In this document: positions 24,311 to 62,563 of the stretch, one piece after another
Layout: every line of letters begins with the position of its first letter
Position numbering within the stretch: position 1 is the first letter of the stretch
From: a virus
Taxonomy: Duplodnaviria; Caudoviricetes
Virus record (IMG/VR): IMGVR_UViG_3300017917_003016
Span: 1 to 64,000 of that record
Length of the DNA: 64,000 bases
Reading direction: 5' to 3' (one strand)
Program-made: the position numbers and the translations under genes
The notes under the pieces: model-generated
What the model was told of the DNA's origin: nothing
The model's input: only the letters and a program-made list of their open reading frames with translations
Database searches by the model: none

Positions 24311-24664
24311 ATGAAATTTAACGAATTCCTTTCTGAGTCCGTTATTGCTGAAGAAATTTACCATGGTGACGAATTTTACGAAGCCTACGGCGATCTATGG
24401 TATGATGAAGATGGGCTATATGAAGCAGAATATCGTGGTCGTAAAGTACCTCTTGGTAAACCTATGCGTGGTGATGTTAAGAAGTTTAAGGTATATGTTA
24501 AGGATCCTAGCACCGGCAACATCAAAAAGGTAAACTTTGGTGATCCTAACATGCGCATCAAAAAATCTAACCCGGCCCGTCGCAAGAGTTTTCGTGCTAG
24601 ACACAACTGCGATAATCCAGGTCCTCGTACCAAGGCTCGCTATTGGTCCTGCAGAAAGTGGTAA
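24311..24664 (+). CDS. Probable capsid-internal protein with basic Cys-containing domain
   Basis: MKFNEFLSE N-terminus after AGGAG RBS; KVNFGDPNM...RRKSFRARHNC...ARYWSCRKW. Confidence 0.7.
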   Translation: MKFNEFLSESVIAEEIYHGDEFYEAYGDLWYDEDGLYEAEYRGRKVPLGKPMRGDVKKFKVYVKDPSTGNIKKVNFGDPNMRIKKSNPARRKSFRARHNCDNPGPRTKARYWSCRKW

Positions 24665-24667
24665 ACT

Positions 24668-25048
24668 ATGAAAATACGCGAAATTGTTCATGAGGGTAAA
24701 GAAGGAAAAAAACCCAAACACGACCGTGCAGATACTGGCGAGTGGCAGTTTCGAGACCAAGGCGGGTATGATCGTGCTTATAATTTAAATCGTATTATGA
24801 TGGCTAGTGCCATAGCAGACGGCGTTTCTGAAACTGCTGTTGATATGCCGCAAAGTTCTTGGGTTGAAAAATTTAATGTTGCCCGTCCTTATACGGAACA
24901 AGAACACAAGATGATGAAAAGTGCGTTTAAAACTGTAAGCAGTGAGCATTATCACACAGAAAAAGATCATAAGAGCCGCGAACCCAATGATACGCATAAA
25001 GTAAGTCCCATGCGAGACCGCGGTCCTATCAAAAGTAAATCTAAGTAA
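24668..25048 (+). CDS. Probable capsid-internal protein
   Basis: MKIREIVHE N-terminus; 126 aa. Confidence 0.65.
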   Translation: MKIREIVHEGKEGKKPKHDRADTGEWQFRDQGGYDRAYNLNRIMMASAIADGVSETAVDMPQSSWVEKFNVARPYTEQEHKMMKSAFKTVSSEHYHTEKDHKSREPNDTHKVSPMRDRGPIKSKSK

Positions 25049-56077: not shown

Positions 56078-56141
56078 ATTTTGGTTGACCTTTTGGTCCT
56101 GTGAACATATAATAGCAGCATAACGTAACAACACAGGAGCA
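56075..56141 (+). promoter_or_regulatory. Early promoter-leader-RBS cassette P1
   Basis: GG-TTGACC(56085)-N17-TATAAT(56108)-AGCAGCATAACGTAACAACACAGGAGC. Confidence 0.9.
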
Positions 56142-56145
56142 TACA

Positions 56146-56535
56146 ATGGCATACTTTAGTCAAGAACGCAAGGCTCAAATCGCCCCCAAGGTCAAGAGTA
56201 TCCTGAAGAAGTACGGCCTTAAGGGTAGCCTTAGTGTGCGCAATCACAGCACTGTGGTCTTGACCATCAACAGCGGCAAGATTGACTTTATCGGTAACAA
56301 CCAAGAGACCATGGGTCGCACCTGGGCCCAGCGCCGCACCAATCTTGATGTCAACATTTATCACTATCGTAATCACTTTGACGGTGTTGCACGTGACGCA
56401 CTCGCTGAACTGATTACTGCTCTCAACGACGGCAACTGGGACAACAGCGACATCCAGACCGACTACTTTGACAAGGGTTGGTACGTTAACGTCAATGTTG
56501 GTCGTTGGAACAAGGGTTATATTGTCACTGCCTAA
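56146..56535 (+). CDS. Early hypothetical protein
   Basis: 129 aa directly after P1; DYFDKGWYVNVNVGRWNKGY. Confidence 0.8.
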   Translation: MAYFSQERKAQIAPKVKSILKKYGLKGSLSVRNHSTVVLTINSGKIDFIGNNQETMGRTWAQRRTNLDVNIYHYRNHFDGVARDALAELITALNDGNWDNSDIQTDYFDKGWYVNVNVGRWNKGYIVTA

Positions 56536-56545
56536 GGAGGCTAAG

Positions 56546-56692
56546 ATGTTTGATCTTATCGATGACACGGCTGCACTCCACGCTCAATGGGAACTTGAGT
56601 ATCAAGAATGGCTAGGTAGCGAAGCCTGGGTTGAAGTTGTTAACCAGTGGCTTTGTGAATTGGCTAACGAAATGCTCAATGAGGAGGCCTAA
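56546..56692 (+). CDS. Small acidic early protein
   Basis: MFDLIDDTAALHAQWE...; AAGGAGG RBS. Confidence 0.65.
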   Translation: MFDLIDDTAALHAQWELEYQEWLGSEAWVEVVNQWLCELANEMLNEEA

Positions 56693-56859
56693 TGGAAAGC
56701 GTTCAAATGAATGAAATTCTGCAGCGCATGGCTCGTGAACGTAATTGTACGGTTTATCAGGTCATTCAAGAGTATTTGAAATACCAATTAAACGGGCAAG
56801 TCAAACACTTTTGGCCTGACCAAAACGAGGCCTGTAGGTCCTATTTGGAGAACAACTGA
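56692..56859 (+). CDS. Small early protein (55 aa)
   Basis: MESVQMNEILQRMARERNC...; GAGGAGG RBS; TAATG coupling; not in the ORF track. Confidence 0.6.
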   Translation: MESVQMNEILQRMARERNCTVYQVIQEYLKYQLNGQVKHFWPDQNEACRSYLENN

Positions 56860-56927
56860 TGAGTCTTATTGGACTTATTGTAATGCTGCTGGTACTTGGT
56901 ATTCTTATTGGAAGGTACATTAGGTGA
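56859..56927 (+). CDS. Tiny membrane peptide (22 aa)
   Basis: MSLIGLIVMLLVLGILIGRYIR; TGATG and GTGA overlaps with both neighbours. Confidence 0.5.
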   Translation: MSLIGLIVMLLVLGILIGRYIR

Positions 56928-57151
56928 CTGCAGAATCTGAGCGTTTTTGTCAACTAATTGATGAATTGAGGCGGGCCTATGTTGCCTCAGATTCTGCAGA
57001 AAGTTCATATGCAAGGCTAGTTGGTGCTCTGGGTGCTATGATACCTTGGTATGTAGACGCTGAAAATCTAGCCAAACTCAACAATGCTCTAGAACAAGCA
57101 GTTAAAAACGAAACTATGAAAATTCTTGGTAAGGAAAATATCCATGCTTGA
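56924..57151 (+). CDS. Early hypothetical protein
   Basis: 75 aa, GTG start coupled to the previous stop. Confidence 0.6.
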   Translation: MTAESERFCQLIDELRRAYVASDSAESSYARLVGALGAMIPWYVDAENLAKLNNALEQAVKNETMKILGKENIHA

Positions 57152-57533
57152 TCAAGAAAACGAGAAGTTCAACGAAGTTGTGTTTGATGGCATCCGTTTT
57201 CTAGAGAGCCTGACTCGTTATTACGGTGCTGAGCGTGGCATGGAAGTCTGGGAACAGTTGGGTGAAGTTGTAGGCAAGGACGTGCAGGGCCAGGTGTTCT
57301 TTGCCATGCTCACGGGCGATACCAGTAACCGTGTGAGAATCAGCCGCGGCACCTGTAAAGAAGCAGTGACCGCTATCAAGGCCATTCGTCAGGCCACTGG
57401 CATGAGTCTCAAAGAAGCCAAGGATGCCTGGGATCTCACTGCAGTCAAGACCGTGACTCTTGACAATGTTCAGCGCGATGCCAAACAGGAGTTTCTTCGC
57501 GATCTTCGCAGTATTGGTGTGAGGGTTCACTAA
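57144..57533 (+). CDS. Protein with a ribosomal L7/L12 C-terminal-like domain
   Basis: AVTAIKAIRQATGMSLKEAKDAWD matches the L7/L12 CTD motif (VIKAVRxxTGLGLKEAKDLVE). Confidence 0.7.
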   Translation: MLDQENEKFNEVVFDGIRFLESLTRYYGAERGMEVWEQLGEVVGKDVQGQVFFAMLTGDTSNRVRISRGTCKEAVTAIKAIRQATGMSLKEAKDAWDLTAVKTVTLDNVQRDAKQEFLRDLRSIGVRVH

Positions 57534-57534
57534 C

Positions 57535-57999
57535 ATGGCAGAAATTTTTTACCGTAAGGTCGGCCGCCGCTATGTCCCAGTCAGTGAATATGACAACTCT
57601 GTCATGGACAGTTTTCCCTACGGATCTCATCTTGTGGTGGTAAAGCGAGGATCAACTAGCCGCCGCCACAACATTGATCCTGCACACGCACCTATGATCG
57701 CTGCTGGTCTTATTGCTGAAGATGCAGTGAGAGAAGCATTGGTCAAAGCCGGCGAAATTCGCCTGCAACGCCGTGACCGTGAACGTCAACTTACACCCGG
57801 ACAAAAGCAGGCCTGGGATAATCTAGTCAAAGAATTTGGTGACAGTGCCAAACAACTGGAATGGCCCAGCACTGCAGAAGTTGCTGAAGAAGGAGTTAAA
57901 GCCATGCAGCGAGAAGCAGATCAACTGCTGCAGAACCCCTCAGTACGTGCAGCCTATGATCATTTTTTGACAGTCTGCGAACTGTGCCGCGAGCATTAA
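57535..57999 (+). CDS. Early hypothetical protein
   Basis: 154 aa; IFYRKVGRRYVPVSEYD. Confidence 0.7.
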   Translation: MAEIFYRKVGRRYVPVSEYDNSVMDSFPYGSHLVVVKRGSTSRRHNIDPAHAPMIAAGLIAEDAVREALVKAGEIRLQRRDRERQLTPGQKQAWDNLVKEFGDSAKQLEWPSTAEVAEEGVKAMQREADQLLQNPSVRAAYDHFLTVCELCREH

Positions 58000-58003
58000 A
58001 ATT

Positions 58004-58060
58004 GGTTGACCTTGCCTGCAGATCACTGTATAATGCTTGCATACGCTAACAAAGCAGGAG
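58004..58060 (+). promoter_or_regulatory. Early promoter P2
   Basis: GG-TTGACC(58006)-N17-TATAAT(58029); CAGGAG RBS. Confidence 0.88.
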
Positions 58061-58068
58061 TAGACAAC

Positions 58069-58416
58069 ATGGCTTACATCGTTTTCCATTTTGAAACTCG
58101 CCAAATCATCAAGCATTATGCTTCGCGCAAGGGTGCACTGGTTGGTCTCCGTGCTGCTAATCGCAATGCTGGCTATCCGCAGCGTTGGACTCTGTGCAAC
58201 TACGATGTTGATCACGGTGCTCTGCGTGAGTGGTGCGAGACTGCCGATGGCTCCAACGGCTATGCTCCTTATGCTGCTATCGAATCCAACCTGTTTGATC
58301 AACACTATCGTCGCAACATCACGGTGACCAATCTTATGACGGGCAAGCCTGTGGAAATTGACAGCAACACCCCGTGGAGTTGCCGCCCGGACAGCGAAGC
58401 CTACTGGAGTAACTAA
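58069..58416 (+). CDS. Early hypothetical protein
   Basis: MAYIVFHFETRQ...; C-terminal NTPWSCRPDSEAYWS; start placed after the P2 RBS. Confidence 0.75.
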   Translation: MAYIVFHFETRQIIKHYASRKGALVGLRAANRNAGYPQRWTLCNYDVDHGALREWCETADGSNGYAPYAAIESNLFDQHYRRNITVTNLMTGKPVEIDSNTPWSCRPDSEAYWSN

Positions 58417-58431
58417 TTTAATGAGCCAAAC

Positions 58432-58707
58432 ATGATTAACATTCAATTTAACATTCACAATCCACTAGTTCATCGATTTGTGCCCGTTAAGATATGGCAA
58501 GGTCCAACTCCTATTGAACACAAATTTTGGGAGTTGGAAATCTACAAGAGTTCGGATATTGTTGATGCGTTCTTTCGTTTCGACTGTTGTCAAAGCCATG
58601 CTGGGCTGCATCTAGGTCTAGCACTGCTGGGATACAACATTGAATTTCAAATCTATGACCATCGTCATTGGGACTATGAAGAAGAAGATTGGTATTATAA
58701 TGAATAA
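58432..58707 (+). CDS. Hypothetical protein
   Basis: 91 aa; SHAGLHLGLALLGY...IYDHRHWDY. Confidence 0.65.
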   Translation: MINIQFNIHNPLVHRFVPVKIWQGPTPIEHKFWELEIYKSSDIVDAFFRFDCCQSHAGLHLGLALLGYNIEFQIYDHRHWDYEEEDWYYNE

Positions 58708-58717
58708 GGAACTGATT

Positions 58718-58852
58718 ATGAAAACTATTGCACTGGTAATTGCTGTACTGTCGCTGATTTCTTTGGCATTTAACTACTCTGATCCTGCAGCAGCCGCAGG
58801 TTGGGCTGTGGCCTTTGCTGGTTGGATCTTCCACGCACTGGCCAAAGAATAA
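58718..58852 (+). CDS. Small two-TM membrane protein
   Basis: MKTIALVIAVLSLISLAF...AAGWAVAFAGWIF; AAGGA RBS. Confidence 0.55.
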   Translation: MKTIALVIAVLSLISLAFNYSDPAAAAGWAVAFAGWIFHALAKE

Positions 58853-58899
58853 AATGAAATTTATGCTGCAACTGGGACTCTGCGGAATCTAAAGACCGT

Positions 58900-59118
58900 A
58901 TGAATCAAAAAATTCGTGAGTTTATTCAAAGGTCTTATCCTCAAGTTGACCTTGACCAAGAAATTGCCAATCGCGATGAATTGCCTAAAGAAGTTGAGCA
59001 TTTGGTTACCCTAGTGGTGGAAGAATGTCTTAAGGTTAGTGGCCGCACCCCCACAGTGTGGCCTTTTGCCTTTATAGATTTTAACAAGGTAATCAGACGA
59101 CATTTTGGCCTAGATTAG
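58900..59118 (+). CDS. Hypothetical protein
   Basis: 72 aa; LVTLVVEECLKV...IRRHFG. Confidence 0.55.
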   Translation: MNQKIREFIQRSYPQVDLDQEIANRDELPKEVEHLVTLVVEECLKVSGRTPTVWPFAFIDFNKVIRRHFGLD

Positions 59119-59181
59119 ATTTTGGTTGACCTTTTGTTCCTGTGATCTTATAATAGTGGCATAACGTAAAACACAGGAGCA
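59116..59181 (+). promoter_or_regulatory. Early promoter-leader-RBS cassette P3, near-copy of P1
   Basis: TAGATTTTGG-TTGACC(59126)-N17-TATAAT(59149)-AGTGGCATAACGTAAAACACAGGAGC. Confidence 0.9.
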
Positions 59182-59185
59182 AGGC

Positions 59186-59446
59186 ATGAACAGTCAAGCC
59201 ATTCAAACTGCTATCTATACTTGGGCAACCAACGGTAGTTTTTCTGCACCTTACGGTGTGCTCACTGGCCAACACGCCAGTCGCAATGGTCGCAACTATC
59301 ATTCAGTGACCTTTGGTCGTGCCCGCAGTCTGGACTGCGAAGTGCAGATCTACAACAGGAATTTTATTGTAGTACGTACTAACCGTCATGGTAGCCAGGT
59401 ATTTCGTAACTACCAAGACTGTCAAAACTTCCTGGATACTCTGTAA
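59186..59446 (+). CDS. Early hypothetical protein
   Basis: 86 aa directly after P3. Confidence 0.75.
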   Translation: MNSQAIQTAIYTWATNGSFSAPYGVLTGQHASRNGRNYHSVTFGRARSLDCEVQIYNRNFIVVRTNRHGSQVFRNYQDCQNFLDTL

Positions 59447-59482
59447 TTCTTCCAACAGATAAATATCTAACAAGGACCTGCA

Positions 59483-59665
59483 ATGAAAATCACTGAAGTT
59501 AGCAAGACCAATCGCCAAGCACTGCGCGAAAGCCTTGAACAGTCCAACGATACTGGTTTCAGTGTTGACGACCTTATGACTATCTACGATCTGCACAAGA
59601 ACGGTGATTGGGACTGTGTAGACGCCGATGATGAAATTGCACGTCTTGATGCTATGATTGACTAA
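59483..59665 (+). CDS. Small acidic protein, candidate antitoxin
   Basis: Late promoter GATAAATA at 59458-59465; MKITEV N-terminus; acidic C-terminal half; directly upstream of a RelE/YafQ-like gene. Confidence 0.55.
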   Translation: MKITEVSKTNRQALRESLEQSNDTGFSVDDLMTIYDLHKNGDWDCVDADDEIARLDAMID

Positions 59666-59670
59666 TCAGT

Positions 59671-60072
59671 ATGCCTGCGCCGCGCGATAATAAACCACAA
59701 ATACAAAGAAAATTTTGGCGCAGTACAGAGTACCGAGATCAGGTCAACCCAGAAAATCCAAATCGAGTCCGCGGTTCAGTCAAAGATTCTCTTAAGAGAT
59801 TTTTGAGCAGCAAAAGAACTAATCCGCAACAGTCCTACGGCAACAAAGACTATCCGTTTACATCAGCAGGGCAATTTGCCCATGAAGTTCCGGGACTGAT
59901 GCATGCTCATTTAAGTCAAGATCTTTCCATAGTCTATAAAGTTCAAGGTAACGAAATATATCTTTTTGGGATATTTTCACATGCTGACCTTGGTACCGGA
60001 AATCCTCCAAATATTCGTAAACAAACTAGTATGGCACGAAGATTTGCCAACATGACCTTTACTGAAGAATGA
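59671..60072 (+). CDS. RelE/YafQ-like mRNA interferase
   Basis: DYPFT...GLMHAHLSQDLSIVYKVQGNEIYLFGIFSHADL parallels YafQ (DHPL...ECHIxPDWLLIY...LxLxRxGSHSDLF). Confidence 0.65.
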   Translation: MPAPRDNKPQIQRKFWRSTEYRDQVNPENPNRVRGSVKDSLKRFLSSKRTNPQQSYGNKDYPFTSAGQFAHEVPGLMHAHLSQDLSIVYKVQGNEIYLFGIFSHADLGTGNPPNIRKQTSMARRFANMTFTEE

Positions 60073-60078
60073 CTCTTT

Positions 60079-60133
60079 GGTTGACAACCCTGCTCTAGAC
60101 CTGTATAATAGCGGTACAGTGAACAACAAGGAG
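60079..60133 (+). promoter_or_regulatory. Early promoter P4
   Basis: GG-TTGACA(60081)-N17-TATAAT(60104); AAGGAGC RBS. Confidence 0.9.
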
Positions 60134-60141
60134 CAACAACA

Positions 60142-60297
60142 ATGACCCACAATGAAATCATGGACGAATGGGCACGTCGACTCAATTACGTTGCACAACT
60201 GTTCCGTGAAGGTGAGATTGATCTGTGTGAGTTTGACGAACGCAACGCTGCGGTGCAAGGTTGGTTTGACACTGAGTATGCCAAGGTAGTTGGTTAA
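60142..60297 (+). CDS. Small early protein (51 aa)
   Basis: MTHNEIMDEWARRLNYVAQLFREG...; follows P4; not in the ORF track. Confidence 0.7.
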   Translation: MTHNEIMDEWARRLNYVAQLFREGEIDLCEFDERNAAVQGWFDTEYAKVVG

Positions 60298-60316
60298 TTT
60301 TAACAAGGAGCGCACA

Positions 60317-60406
60317 ATGTATATTCCCCAACCTGTGATTATTTTTGTTGTGTCCCTTCTCATCGGCTACGGCGCTGCTGACATTTTTGCAAAATTCTTC
60401 AATTAA
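60317..60406 (+). CDS. Small membrane peptide (29 aa)
   Basis: MYIPQPVIIFVVSLLIGYGAADIFAKFFN; AAGGAGC RBS. Confidence 0.6.
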   Translation: MYIPQPVIIFVVSLLIGYGAADIFAKFFN

Positions 60407-60431
60407 TCACTTGCTCAATCAGGAGATAACT

Positions 60432-60701
60432 ATGACTGCACAAGAAATCGTTCGCGAGATCGTCACTGGCAACTTCACTGCTGATGAAGTTCGCAGTTTC
60501 TACGACGCCTATAAGTTTGCTGCCAATCAACTGTCGCGCAAGGCAACCTTTACTCTGCGCCGAGGCGACAAGGTCAAGTTCAAGGACCGCTATGGTTTGG
60601 AAGTGATCGGTACTGTGCAGGACATCAAGATCAAGAACGTAGTGGTTAAGACTACGTTGTATACCTACCGTGTGCCGGCTAGCATGGTGACTGCGGCTTA
60701 A
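60432..60701 (+). CDS. Early protein with SH3/KOW-like C-terminus
   Basis: MTAQEIV...; LRRGDKVKF...GTVQDIKIKNVVV..YRVPASM; CAGGAG RBS. Confidence 0.7.
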   Translation: MTAQEIVREIVTGNFTADEVRSFYDAYKFAANQLSRKATFTLRRGDKVKFKDRYGLEVIGTVQDIKIKNVVVKTTLYTYRVPASMVTAA

Positions 60702-60703
60702 TT

Positions 60704-60907
60704 ATGATTATTACCGAAGAACGTCAAATGGTTCTGCAGGCAGTGCTTGACGGGCAACTGAGTGCAGATTATGTCACCGACGAAGAACTTATCTTTCTGC
60801 ATCACAGTCTAGCAGATTCTACTATTGAAGAAGCCATGTATGCAGCAGAGTCTCGCAATGATGTGACGGTGTTTGGTCTTGACTGGGAATATGCGCAGCC
60901 CAATTGA
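60704..60907 (+). CDS. Hypothetical acidic protein
   Basis: 67 aa, packed in the operon. Confidence 0.55.
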   Translation: MIITEERQMVLQAVLDGQLSADYVTDEELIFLHHSLADSTIEEAMYAAESRNDVTVFGLDWEYAQPN

Positions 60908-61106
60908 CACCAAAAGATATCCTTATCAGGTTGTGGTTGTTGAGCCTATACCAGTCATGGCACACATTTGGTTAAAAAATAATCAAATTGATCACAAGGA
61001 CTCCTTTACTGAGGGTGCTGCTGTGGGACAGTTAGATCCTCTGGTGCGTTGTATCTATTTTGCCGATGCTCGTGATGCTGCTTGGTTTGCTTTGAAGTGG
61101 TCATAA
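60891..61106 (+). CDS. Hypothetical protein
   Basis: Ends in IYFADARDAAWFALKWS. Confidence 0.55.
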   Translation: MRSPIDTKRYPYQVVVVEPIPVMAHIWLKNNQIDHKDSFTEGAAVGQLDPLVRCIYFADARDAAWFALKWS

Positions 61107-61126
61107 AATTTGAAATTAGGTAAATT

Positions 61127-61318
61127 ATGATAGAAAAAACTAGATTAGATGGATTACTGTTCGCCATGTTAGGCGACAGTCAGTTGGTAGAACGTTGGTG
61201 GTATAGTCCTAACAAGGCCTTTGACTCAGAAAGGCCGATTGATGTTTTTGTACTAGAGCCCGATCGAGTCAGAGACTATGTCATGCGTATGGCCAATCTC
61301 AACAGTGACTACGACTGA
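61127..61318 (+). CDS. Stand-alone MbcA/ParS/Xre antitoxin C-terminal-like protein
   Basis: MLGDSQLVERWWYSPNKAFDSERPIDV...VRDYV resembles the G...A..WL..PN.AL.G..P.D pattern. Confidence 0.55.
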   Translation: MIEKTRLDGLLFAMLGDSQLVERWWYSPNKAFDSERPIDVFVLEPDRVRDYVMRMANLNSDYD

Positions 61319-61380
61319 TTTTGGTTGACATTTTGGTCCGTTGATCGTACAATAGCATCATACTAACAACAACGGAGCAA
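61316..61380 (+). promoter_or_regulatory. Early promoter P5
   Basis: GATTTTGG-TTGACA(61325)-N17-TACAAT(61348)-AGCATCATACTAACAACAACGGAGC. Confidence 0.88.
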
Positions 61381-61384
61381 GACT

Positions 61385-62014
61385 ATGGCCTACTACCGCA
61401 AGCACCAAGTGGAAGAACCCCGTTTTACGGTCAAGGAGATTGTGGCCGCAGCCATTATTCAAGATGAACAACATCCCACAAAGGACGGTGTTCCGCTGAC
61501 TACTCGTGACATCCTTGAAAGCACTCCTGTGCTGCCCGTGGCTCGTGCTGAGCAAATGATTGAAGAAGTACAGCAGAATTTTACTCTCAGCATGCTGCGC
61601 GGTCGAGAGTTCAGCAACTTCAATCGCAAGTTGGCAGAAATCATCAGCGAGCCTGAAGCCAAAACCAACAGCAATTTTGGTATCCTTGCTTATGTTCCCA
61701 GTGTTCACCGTGACCTGGTCAAGACCAACACTATTACTGAACAAACCTGTGACAGCCGCTATCAAGGACGCACAGGCGAAACTTTGAATTTTACGGCTCG
61801 CGTGTTGAACTGCCGTTACATTGCCAGTTATGGTTTCTATACCGCACTGTTGCTTGACGACACCGGTAACGTCTACAGTTTCAGTCCTAAGGCTTCGCTA
61901 GATGAAGGTGCGACTGTGACCATCCGTGGCAAGGTCAAGGCACACAAGCAGGACAAGTACAACAACAACGTTGAGACTACCTATCTCAACTATGTCAAGA
62001 TTCAAAAAAATTAA
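61385..62014 (+). CDS. Early protein with a C-terminal OB-fold-like domain
   Basis: GETLNFTARVLNCRY...DDTGNVYSF...VTIRGKVKAH...TYLNYVKI. Confidence 0.7.
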   Translation: MAYYRKHQVEEPRFTVKEIVAAAIIQDEQHPTKDGVPLTTRDILESTPVLPVARAEQMIEEVQQNFTLSMLRGREFSNFNRKLAEIISEPEAKTNSNFGILAYVPSVHRDLVKTNTITEQTCDSRYQGRTGETLNFTARVLNCRYIASYGFYTALLLDDTGNVYSFSPKASLDEGATVTIRGKVKAHKQDKYNNNVETTYLNYVKIQKN

Positions 62015-62017
62015 ACA

Positions 62018-62082
62018 AGATTTGGTTGACAGGCTTACCAAAATATCATATAATAGCATCATAACGTAACAACACAGGAGCA
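62018..62082 (+). promoter_or_regulatory. Early promoter-leader-RBS cassette P6
   Basis: GG-TTGACA(62026)-N17-TATAAT(62049)-AGCATCATAACGTAACAACACAGGAGC. Confidence 0.9.
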
Positions 62083-62088
62083 GCACAA

Positions 62089-62490
62089 ATGGCCAAGATC
62101 TACACCTTCGACGAGAACATTGTTAGCGATCTGTACAAGGATGCCTATGGTCACCGCCCGGGCCAATCGTTCTGGGAAATGTGGAAGACTGTCACCGACC
62201 GTGACCGCCAAGAAATTTGGGACAACCTGCTTGAGGCTCTGGACCGTGCCGTTGAGCAAGAACGTGCTGCCCGGACTCGTGCCGAGCATGACTTCCAGTT
62301 CACTATTGCTAGCCTGATGCATGCAGGTGCCAAGGACTTTGAAATGGCCGTTCGTTGGCTACATGACGCAAACGACACCCAAGGTGACGATGAGTACCTG
62401 GAGTACAAGTTGGGAATTGGCTACGGCTATATCCGCGAGGCTCGTGAGTCCATGCAGGTTGCCAATGAACTGCTGGCACAAACCGCATAA
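62089..62490 (+). CDS. Early hypothetical protein
   Basis: 133 aa; SDLYKDAYGHRP. Confidence 0.75.
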   Translation: MAKIYTFDENIVSDLYKDAYGHRPGQSFWEMWKTVTDRDRQEIWDNLLEALDRAVEQERAARTRAEHDFQFTIASLMHAGAKDFEMAVRWLHDANDTQGDDEYLEYKLGIGYGYIREARESMQVANELLAQTA

Positions 62491-62492
62491 GT

Positions 62493-62563
62493 GGTTGACA
62501 ACTAGATCCAAAGATCATATAATACTGAAACTGTAGTACAAAACACAATAACTTTTCAGGAGC
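62493..62563 (+). promoter_or_regulatory. Early promoter P7
   Basis: GG-TTGACA(62495)-N17-TATAAT(62518); CAGGAGC RBS. Confidence 0.9.

Follow-up and report, generated by a model that had tools for sequence, protein, structure and literature searches.

A phage branch of YafQ/RelE-type RNases with a small acidic partner and a late-promoter motif

We describe a two-gene module of a large phage whose second gene belongs to an apparently phage-specific branch of the YafQ/RelE RNases. The module pairs this RNase-like protein with a new kind of partner, predicted to consist of three helices, and places both under late-promoter control; it lies outside the curated YafQ family. Our best explanation, in which we have about even confidence, is that the second gene encodes a catalytically competent, phage-specific, ribosome-dependent mRNA endonuclease of the YafQ/RelE type and that the first encodes a dedicated acidic partner, serving as its inhibitor or escort. 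Direct support extends to the fold, the conservation of catalytic residues, the gene arrangement, the synteny, the natural fusions, and the promoter motif together with its conservation.

Locus, fold and active site of the RNase-like protein

The window, meaning the whole stretch of DNA that we analysed, covers positions 1 to 64,000 of an IMG/VR virus record 201,732 bp long. CheckV places the completeness of this record at 56%, and we therefore read it as a fragment of a jumbo phage genome. The layout of the pair was re-read from the sequence and lies entirely on the plus strand. The T4-like late-promoter motif GATAAATA occupies 59458..59465, 17 nt 5' of the ATG of the small gene, and is followed by an AAGGA Shine-Dalgarno sequence at 59472..59476, 6 nt 5' of the same ATG. 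The small gene (59483..59665, with its ATG at 59483 and its stop at 59663-59665) encodes the 60-aa acidic partner. The gene for the 133-aa RNase-like protein of the YafQ/RelE fold follows at 59671..60072; its ATG at 59671 falls 5 nt past the partner stop and has no obvious Shine-Dalgarno sequence. Two sigma-70-type promoters frame the pair. The first, at 59126..59154 (TTGACC-17-TATAAT, 11/12 consensus matches), serves the upstream early cassette, and the second, at 60081..60109 (TTGACA-17-TATAAT, 12/12), serves the next early cassette and marks the downstream boundary of the pair.

The 60-aa protein is strongly acidic, with a pI of 4.18, a net charge of about -9 and 15 D/E residues against 6 K/R. 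It starts with MKITEV and also holds LRESLE within its sequence. The 133-aa protein is basic (pI 9.92) and contains the segments HAHLSQD and FSHADL. Its catalytic core codons span 59902..59982, with H78 at 59902-59904, H80 at 59908-59910, D84 at 59920-59922 and H104 at 59980-59982. The promoter motif, both ORFs, the MKITEV start, LRESLE and the region of the SHxDL histidine were thus all found again as the initial annotation had described them.

That annotation had also called the larger protein YafQ/RelE-like. Its sequence falls short of the curated thresholds for this family: the match to Pfam YafQ_toxin PF15738 reached E 0.016 and 15.9 bits against a cut-off of 30 bits, and the match to NCBIfam TIGR00053 reached 12.6 bits against a cut-off of 87.25. 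PHROGs holds no family for the 133-aa protein or for the 60-aa partner. Across the family, PF15738 was the only recurrent match, found in 16 of 74 members at E <=0.1 with a best value of 1.3e-4. When a profile built from 52 family members was compared with PDB sequences, HP0892 was matched over nearly its full length (E 0.0056), and eight of the nine matches were YafQ-type toxins.

Structure prediction points the same way. The AF2 model of the 133-aa protein (pLDDT 76) contains the elements E15-18, H19-25, H36-50, E76-80, E85-92 and E95-103, an order that matches the compact alpha/beta microbial-RNase-like fold of the RelE/ParE superfamily, in which one strand and two helices lead into an antiparallel sheet of three or four strands. 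When this model was compared with the PDB using Foldseek, YafQ chains came out on top (9lew_B, E 4.3e-5, TM 0.75 on the target), and the significant matches were all RelE-superfamily toxins. A fused family member, modelled by AF2 with a pLDDT of 91, superposed on H. pylori HP0894 with a VIA Z of 11.2 and an rmsd of 1.7 A over 86/88 residues, and on V. cholerae YafQ with a VIA Z of 11.1 and an rmsd of 1.6 A over 88/90 residues. VIA returned 67 chains at Z >=8, and the top 50 listed entries were all of the RelE/ParE fold, comprising toxins and the Cami1 RNase. Further searches gave little that carried a name: BFVD returned one close viral match, unnamed, and none with a named function, and ESM Atlas returned only unnamed or RelE-type clusters for the RNase. 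The Foldseek and VIA superpositions make the assignment of the modelled protein to the RelE/YafQ fold, and so to the RelE/ParE superfamily, secure. With a Z of 11, an rmsd of 1.6-1.7 A and the key catalytic histidine in place, the YafQ/RelE-like label holds. The DinJ-YafQ systems of E. coli and V. cholerae and the H. pylori proteins HP0892/HP0894 share this fold with the phage RNase at Z 10.7-11.2.

We then compared the active site with that of E. coli YafQ, using the MG1655 record as the alignment reference. H80, D84 and H104 align with YafQ H63, D67 and H87, and the phage protein therefore has the same H...D...H arrangement. In YafQ, H87 is indispensable, and cleavage is lost in the H87A mutant; a tuning role towards H87 has been proposed for D67, H50 (the primary one) and H63 act as redundant general bases, and F91 positions the mRNA by stacking (PMC4652777). 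Among 157 cluster representatives, H104 is conserved in 100%, D84 in 93% (otherwise N), H78 in 90% and H80 in 87%; K48, Y89 and G108 are also invariant. This conservation of catalytic residues argues for an active RNase.

The phage RNase also differs from YafQ in several respects besides the missed Pfam and NCBIfam cut-offs. The position of YafQ H50 is occupied by Y61 here and is variable in the family (K 35%, T 22%, Y 15%, R 10%), while YafQ F91 has no counterpart, its position falling on the invariant G108. The phage protein carries about 13 extra N-terminal residues. After H104 comes a conserved G-T-G-x-P-x-N-x-x-x-Q segment and then a helix, together covering residues 108-127, in which G108 (100%), T109, G110, P112, N114 and Q118 (90%) are conserved and for which YafQ has no equivalent. 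The structural alignments to HigB and to 70S-bound RelE extend over this C-terminal helix, which superposes on the C-terminal helix of both. From the catalytic residues and the helix superposition, the protein combines active-site residues of the YafQ type with a C-terminal helix like that of RelE and HigB.

The family proved to be large. A word-indexed search gave eight relatives of the RNase; when a profile was run exhaustively against 1.84 billion cluster representatives, 332 matched at E <=1e-3 and 274 at <=1e-10. On these profile matches, the RNase is one member of a large family without a name, which counts at least 332 clusters (50% identity) from phage and metagenome data. No relative turned up when 185,579 prokaryote species, each represented by one genome, were scanned with a single narrow pattern, and on that scan the family is apparently confined to phages. 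IMG/VR yielded 15 related loci on contigs of up to 338 kb. A tblastn search with the RNase matched only one named phage, the cultured Ralstonia jumbo phage RsoM2USA (343.8 kb), which carries the pair as genes 114/115; a megablast search of the locus against 50,697 phage records gave zero matches. We found no description of the family in a jumbo-phage comparative survey (PMC7824862), in the XacN1 and RsoM2USA papers or in full-text literature searches.

Some relatives are predicted to be multidomain proteins that carry the RNase domain (P0065, P0091, P0080/P0139, P0023, P0074 and P0075). The predicted fusion domains comprise a T7 gp0.7-like kinase, a metalloprotease-like domain, phrog_36119, NUDIX, GNAT and a GH19 lysozyme-like domain.

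The acidic partner and its link to the RNase

The initial annotation had proposed a toxin-antitoxin-like pair, and the gene arrangement in relatives bears this out. In all 12 unfused related loci examined, RsoM2USA_115/114 included, a small acidic ORF (pI 4.1-4.7) that is homologous or analogous to the 60-aa partner lies directly upstream of the RNase gene. In these loci the partner gene ends no more than 5 nt from the RNase start or runs into it, with overlaps of -1 to about -20 nt. The partner is also fused in frame to the RNase N-terminus in the relatives P0007, L008 and L009 and, by HMM search, in at least 15 of the 157 representatives; 33 further representatives have N-terminal extensions of at least 35 residues, some with weaker matches to the partner domain. 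Genes flanking the pair differ among phages and include a gene for ClpP, a cytidylyltransferase or a metallopeptidase-like protein. Since the flanking genes are not conserved, we regard the pair as an autonomous two-gene cassette, and the combination of synteny, translational coupling and fusion makes a functional link between the two proteins well supported.

Sequence searches with the partner itself returned little. The 60-aa protein had no Pfam match, and 14 partner homologues gave only scattered chance matches in Pfam. When the small protein was searched by tblastn, nothing was found in the phage records, and matches were found in 6 of the IMG/VR related loci. ESM Atlas offered no usable relatives, and the Atlas model of the partner was poor (pLDDT 0.59). 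Alignment of the partner family shows an N-terminus of the form M-K/R-I/L-x-E-V/I, followed by L-x-E.

A natural fusion gave a better model. In the AF2 prediction for P0107 (overall pLDDT 91), the partner forms helices at 11-21, 28-40 and 49-61 with pLDDT 77-94, and a linker of low confidence connects it to the RNase domain, which has pLDDT 96-98. The pTM of this model is only 0.66, and it therefore gives no confident interface between partner and RNase and no confident domain placement. The partner is thus predicted to be a three-helix acidic domain without an N-terminal strand. Pfam and PHROG searches and the AF2 model detected no DNA-binding domain in it.

The pair has the layout of a type II toxin-antitoxin module: the genes are co-directional and separated by 5 nt, the acidic partner comes first and the RNase is basic (pI 9.9). 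YafQ-type modules likewise have a basic RNase, an acidic partner upstream and translational coupling. By analogy with this layout, the partner may bind and inhibit the RNase. The autoregulation typical of type II modules was not seen, as the partner matches no DNA-binding family and the promoters are of phage late and sigma-70 types. Unlike DinJ, which has a ribbon-helix-helix DNA-binding domain, the phage partner is predicted to have three helices and no such domain. In contrast to YafQ modules, the pair is phage-borne, stands behind a late promoter and is often fused, RNase to partner or to other enzymes.

A parallel is offered by PaaA2-ParE2-type modules, which also join a small acidic helical partner without a DNA-binding domain to a toxin of the RelE/ParE fold. 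ParE2 is among the structural matches of the phage RNase family (Z 9.0). ParE toxins are not known to possess the RNase histidines and act by poisoning gyrase, whereas the phage family retains YafQ-type catalytic residues, and the two kinds of partner have no sequence similarity.

In one related phage (L012 2938-3558), a ClpP gene (Pfam CLP_protease, E 7e-67) lies directly 5' of the cassette. This neighbour would matter if the partner were degraded to release the RNase.

Promoters and timing of expression

The motif ahead of the pair is more frequent than expected. The window contains 8 copies of GATAAATA against 3.5 expected, and a count of 8 was reached in no shuffle. Across the 201.7-kb record, the shorter form ATAAATA occurs 51 times on the plus strand and 9 times on the minus strand, and most copies lie within about 60 nt 5' of an ORF start. 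Copies stand directly 5' of genes for the tail sheath (E 2e-211), the tail tube, a head-tail adaptor and a virion structural protein. In this behaviour the motif is like the late promoter of T4, TATAAATA. Judging from its counts and placement, we read GATAAATA/ATAAATA as a T4-like late-promoter motif that occurs more often than by chance. A search of the 201.7-kb record did not find the T4 late sigma factor gp55, an outcome that carries no weight given a completeness of 56% and controls that also gave no signal.

The motif is also kept in relatives. In 12 of 14 distinct related loci, ATAAATA (8 loci) or TAAATA (4 more) stands 1-25 nt 5' of the ATG of the small gene. As background, 13% of the genes in the phage's own genome have ATAAATA within 45 nt, and 19% have TAAATA. 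In six relatives (L005, L007, L010, L012, L013 and L017), a TTGACA-type -35 element and a -10 element are found just upstream in addition to the late motif.

We also looked at the region between the upstream early promoter at 59126 and the next one at 60081 and found no terminator-like site on the plus strand. Since nothing of this kind separates the pair from the 59126 promoter, early read-through is likely in addition to any late transcription. The late motif and the sigma-70 -35/-10 elements in several relatives likewise suggest expression that is probably both early and late. These sequence features indicate that the pair is probably expressed early as well as late, not late only. The initial annotation had described the pair as driven by a late promoter. 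The motif itself is real and conserved, but an exclusively late timing is too simple given the expected read-through and the sigma-70 sites in relatives.

The early promoters around the pair form an unusually dense array. Seven sigma-70 consensus promoters, all with 17-nt spacers, lie on the plus strand within 6.5 kb at 56085-62523. Three of the seven in this run (56.0-62.5 kb) are perfect 12/12 matches and four are 11/12, each stands ahead of a short cassette of small ORFs, and the pair sits between two of them.

In five relatives (L004, L006, L007, L008 and L012), ATAAATA ends only 1-6 nt before the ATG of the small gene, and no Shine-Dalgarno sequence is present. At this distance, late transcripts of the partner in those phages would be leaderless or nearly so.

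Possible roles during infection

How might such a module act? We propose that translational coupling lets the 60-aa partner be synthesised before the RNase and in no smaller amount, and that this partner most likely binds the basic RNase and restrains or escorts it as an antitoxin does. Transcription in this phage would come from the T4-type late promoter, probably with read-through from 59126, and the self-contained cassette would move between large phage genomes. The outcome would be that the phage controls cleavage of mRNA in the A site of the ribosome. Host messages, phage messages of earlier classes or both could be the targets, and translation would be redirected during infection. That the family is switched on from late-type promoters suggests that these phages probably use the RNase to cut mRNA on ribosomes. 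RNase activity, dependence on the ribosome, binding and inhibition by the partner and the choice of targets are all inferred. Against this explanation stand the missed curated YafQ thresholds, the variable H50 position, the absence of F91, the pTM of 0.66 in the fusion model with no confident interface, and the lack of a DNA-binding domain in the partner. About 10-30% of relatives have the two proteins fused, which would also be unusual for a mechanism that depends on a labile antitoxin.

The conserved late promoter and the tag-like N-terminus of the partner fit an intracellular regulator and a packaged cargo equally well. In the second case, which the initial annotation had raised beside late mRNA cleavage, a CTS-like tag on the partner or on the fused form would carry the inhibited RNase into the prohead late in infection, and the RNase would enter the next cell together with the injected DNA and immediately cut host mRNA on ribosomes. 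We consider this unlikely, with evidence on both sides. The late-type promoter kept in 12 of the 14 distinct loci suits it, as do the starts of T4 IPII and IPIII, MKTYQEFIAE, which resemble the M-K/R-I/L-x-E-V/I start of the partner, although the resemblance covers only about 6 residues. More generally, the module resembles the CTS-loaded internal proteins and Alt of T4 in a short tag-like N-terminus of the type M-K-x-x-(x)-E-hydrophobic, in late transcription and in a putative effector-type cargo; it differs from them in that only about 6 residues are alike and in that a gp21-type protease was not found in the 56%-complete fragment.

The distribution of the tag is also in favour of packaging. 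Written as M-[KR]-x(2,3)-[ED]-hydrophobic, it is present on 31 of 48 N-extended members, compared with 10 of the 109 members whose sequence opens directly with the RNase fold and with 9 of the 242 ORFs in the phage's own genome, including a cluster at 91-96 kb. The 31 include 7 of 10 long multidomain members, whose middle domains (kinase, metalloprotease, phrog_36119) are unrelated to the partner. A tag on carriers of unrelated middle domains is what would be expected if it marks the RNase carrier, and this keeps the packaging idea alive. In addition, the fusion domains (kinase, NUDIX, GNAT, GH19) resemble host-takeover or entry functions, and a tagged 69-aa protein of the phage's own genome matches a PHROG named for virion structure.

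Other results speak against packaging. The virion study of RsoM2USA, in which only 10 bands were identified, does not mention ORF114/115. A search for the prohead protease PF03420 found none in the 201.7-kb record, which is 56% complete, and the control genomes were silent too. Within the phage's own genome, the tag was not significantly associated with a direct late promoter (3/33 vs 6/209, p = 0.11). The LRE|S cut proposed by the initial annotation would fall inside predicted helix 1 of the partner in the AF2 model of the fusion, and many relatives bear an early promoter too. The tag may instead be a degradation signal or a contact with the RNase. Taken by its sequence features, packaging into the head is possible. 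It is doubtful that a large family of big phages loads a YafQ/RelE-type ribosome-dependent RNase into the head by means of a T4-CTS-like tag on the escort or on the fused polypeptide, and that its injection shuts off host translation within seconds. If this were true, no mRNA interferase would have been seen to be injected before, and the toxin-antitoxin principle would have found a new application.

Similar N-termini recur elsewhere in the phage's own genome. ORFs starting M-K-I/L-x-E-I/V/F are located at 91179, 91756, 94269, 94952 and 95632 (G000 91179-96012; L019 1180-6001). The 413-aa ORF at 91756 corresponds to DUF6267 / phrog_455, and the tagged 69-aa protein at 94269 matches PHROG 16215, 'virion structural protein'. 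M-K-I/L-x-E-type starts are also present at 24311-25048 and 33753 of the window. An N-terminus of this type may be a lineage-wide tag.

A further alternative is that the pair is a selfish or competitive type II addiction or exclusion cassette without a role in the phage's own expression programme; keeping out superinfecting phages or securing its own maintenance would be examples of what it does. Such a cassette would have the classic type II layout seen here, with the acidic partner ahead of a coupled basic toxin, and would be expected to move among unrelated neighbourhoods with its own promoters, as this one does. However, the partner lacks a domain for DNA binding or autoregulation, no relatives emerged from the pattern scan of 185,579 prokaryote genomes, a phage late promoter is conserved ahead of the pair, and fusions of the toxin to its partner and to effector domains recur. 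We therefore regard this alternative as improbable.

Very improbable, finally, is a RelE-fold protein that only binds ribosomes or RNA, or a partner that acts as an effector neutralising host RelE-type toxins (a role the initial annotation had suggested and for which we found no support), since the missing H50 and F91 equivalents and the family-specific C-terminal extension (G108 100%, Q118 90%), which suggest altered function, are outweighed by an essential general-acid histidine conserved in 100% and its Asp partner in 93%, hard to explain without catalysis, and by a partner that is unlike any known antitoxin family and always accompanies its own RNase.

Among lytic phages, the nearest functional precedent is T4 RegB. 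[quoted passage not shown] The phage RNase family resembles RegB, the product of a lytic T4-type phage, in its fold and in the type of activity that we propose. In contrast, RegB is strictly early and has no known partner, and its active-site residues are organised differently from those of the family described here. Homology to RegB was rejected, with an hhalign probability of 0.1% and no PHROG match.

Bacteria are known to use RelE/YafQ toxins in stress and defence. The proteins that we describe form a distinct branch with intact catalytic residues that has so far been seen only in phage and metagenome sequences; with at least 332 clusters (50% identity), the branch is common there. It is tied to phage late promoters and is paired with, or fused to, a new kind of partner, and some of its members are joined to host-takeover-type enzymes. 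The presence of the pair in cultured RsoM2USA, as genes 114/115, makes the family directly testable. If the RNase is active, the family would represent a widespread phage mechanism for cutting mRNA on ribosomes, a counterpart of RegB with a visible inhibitor.
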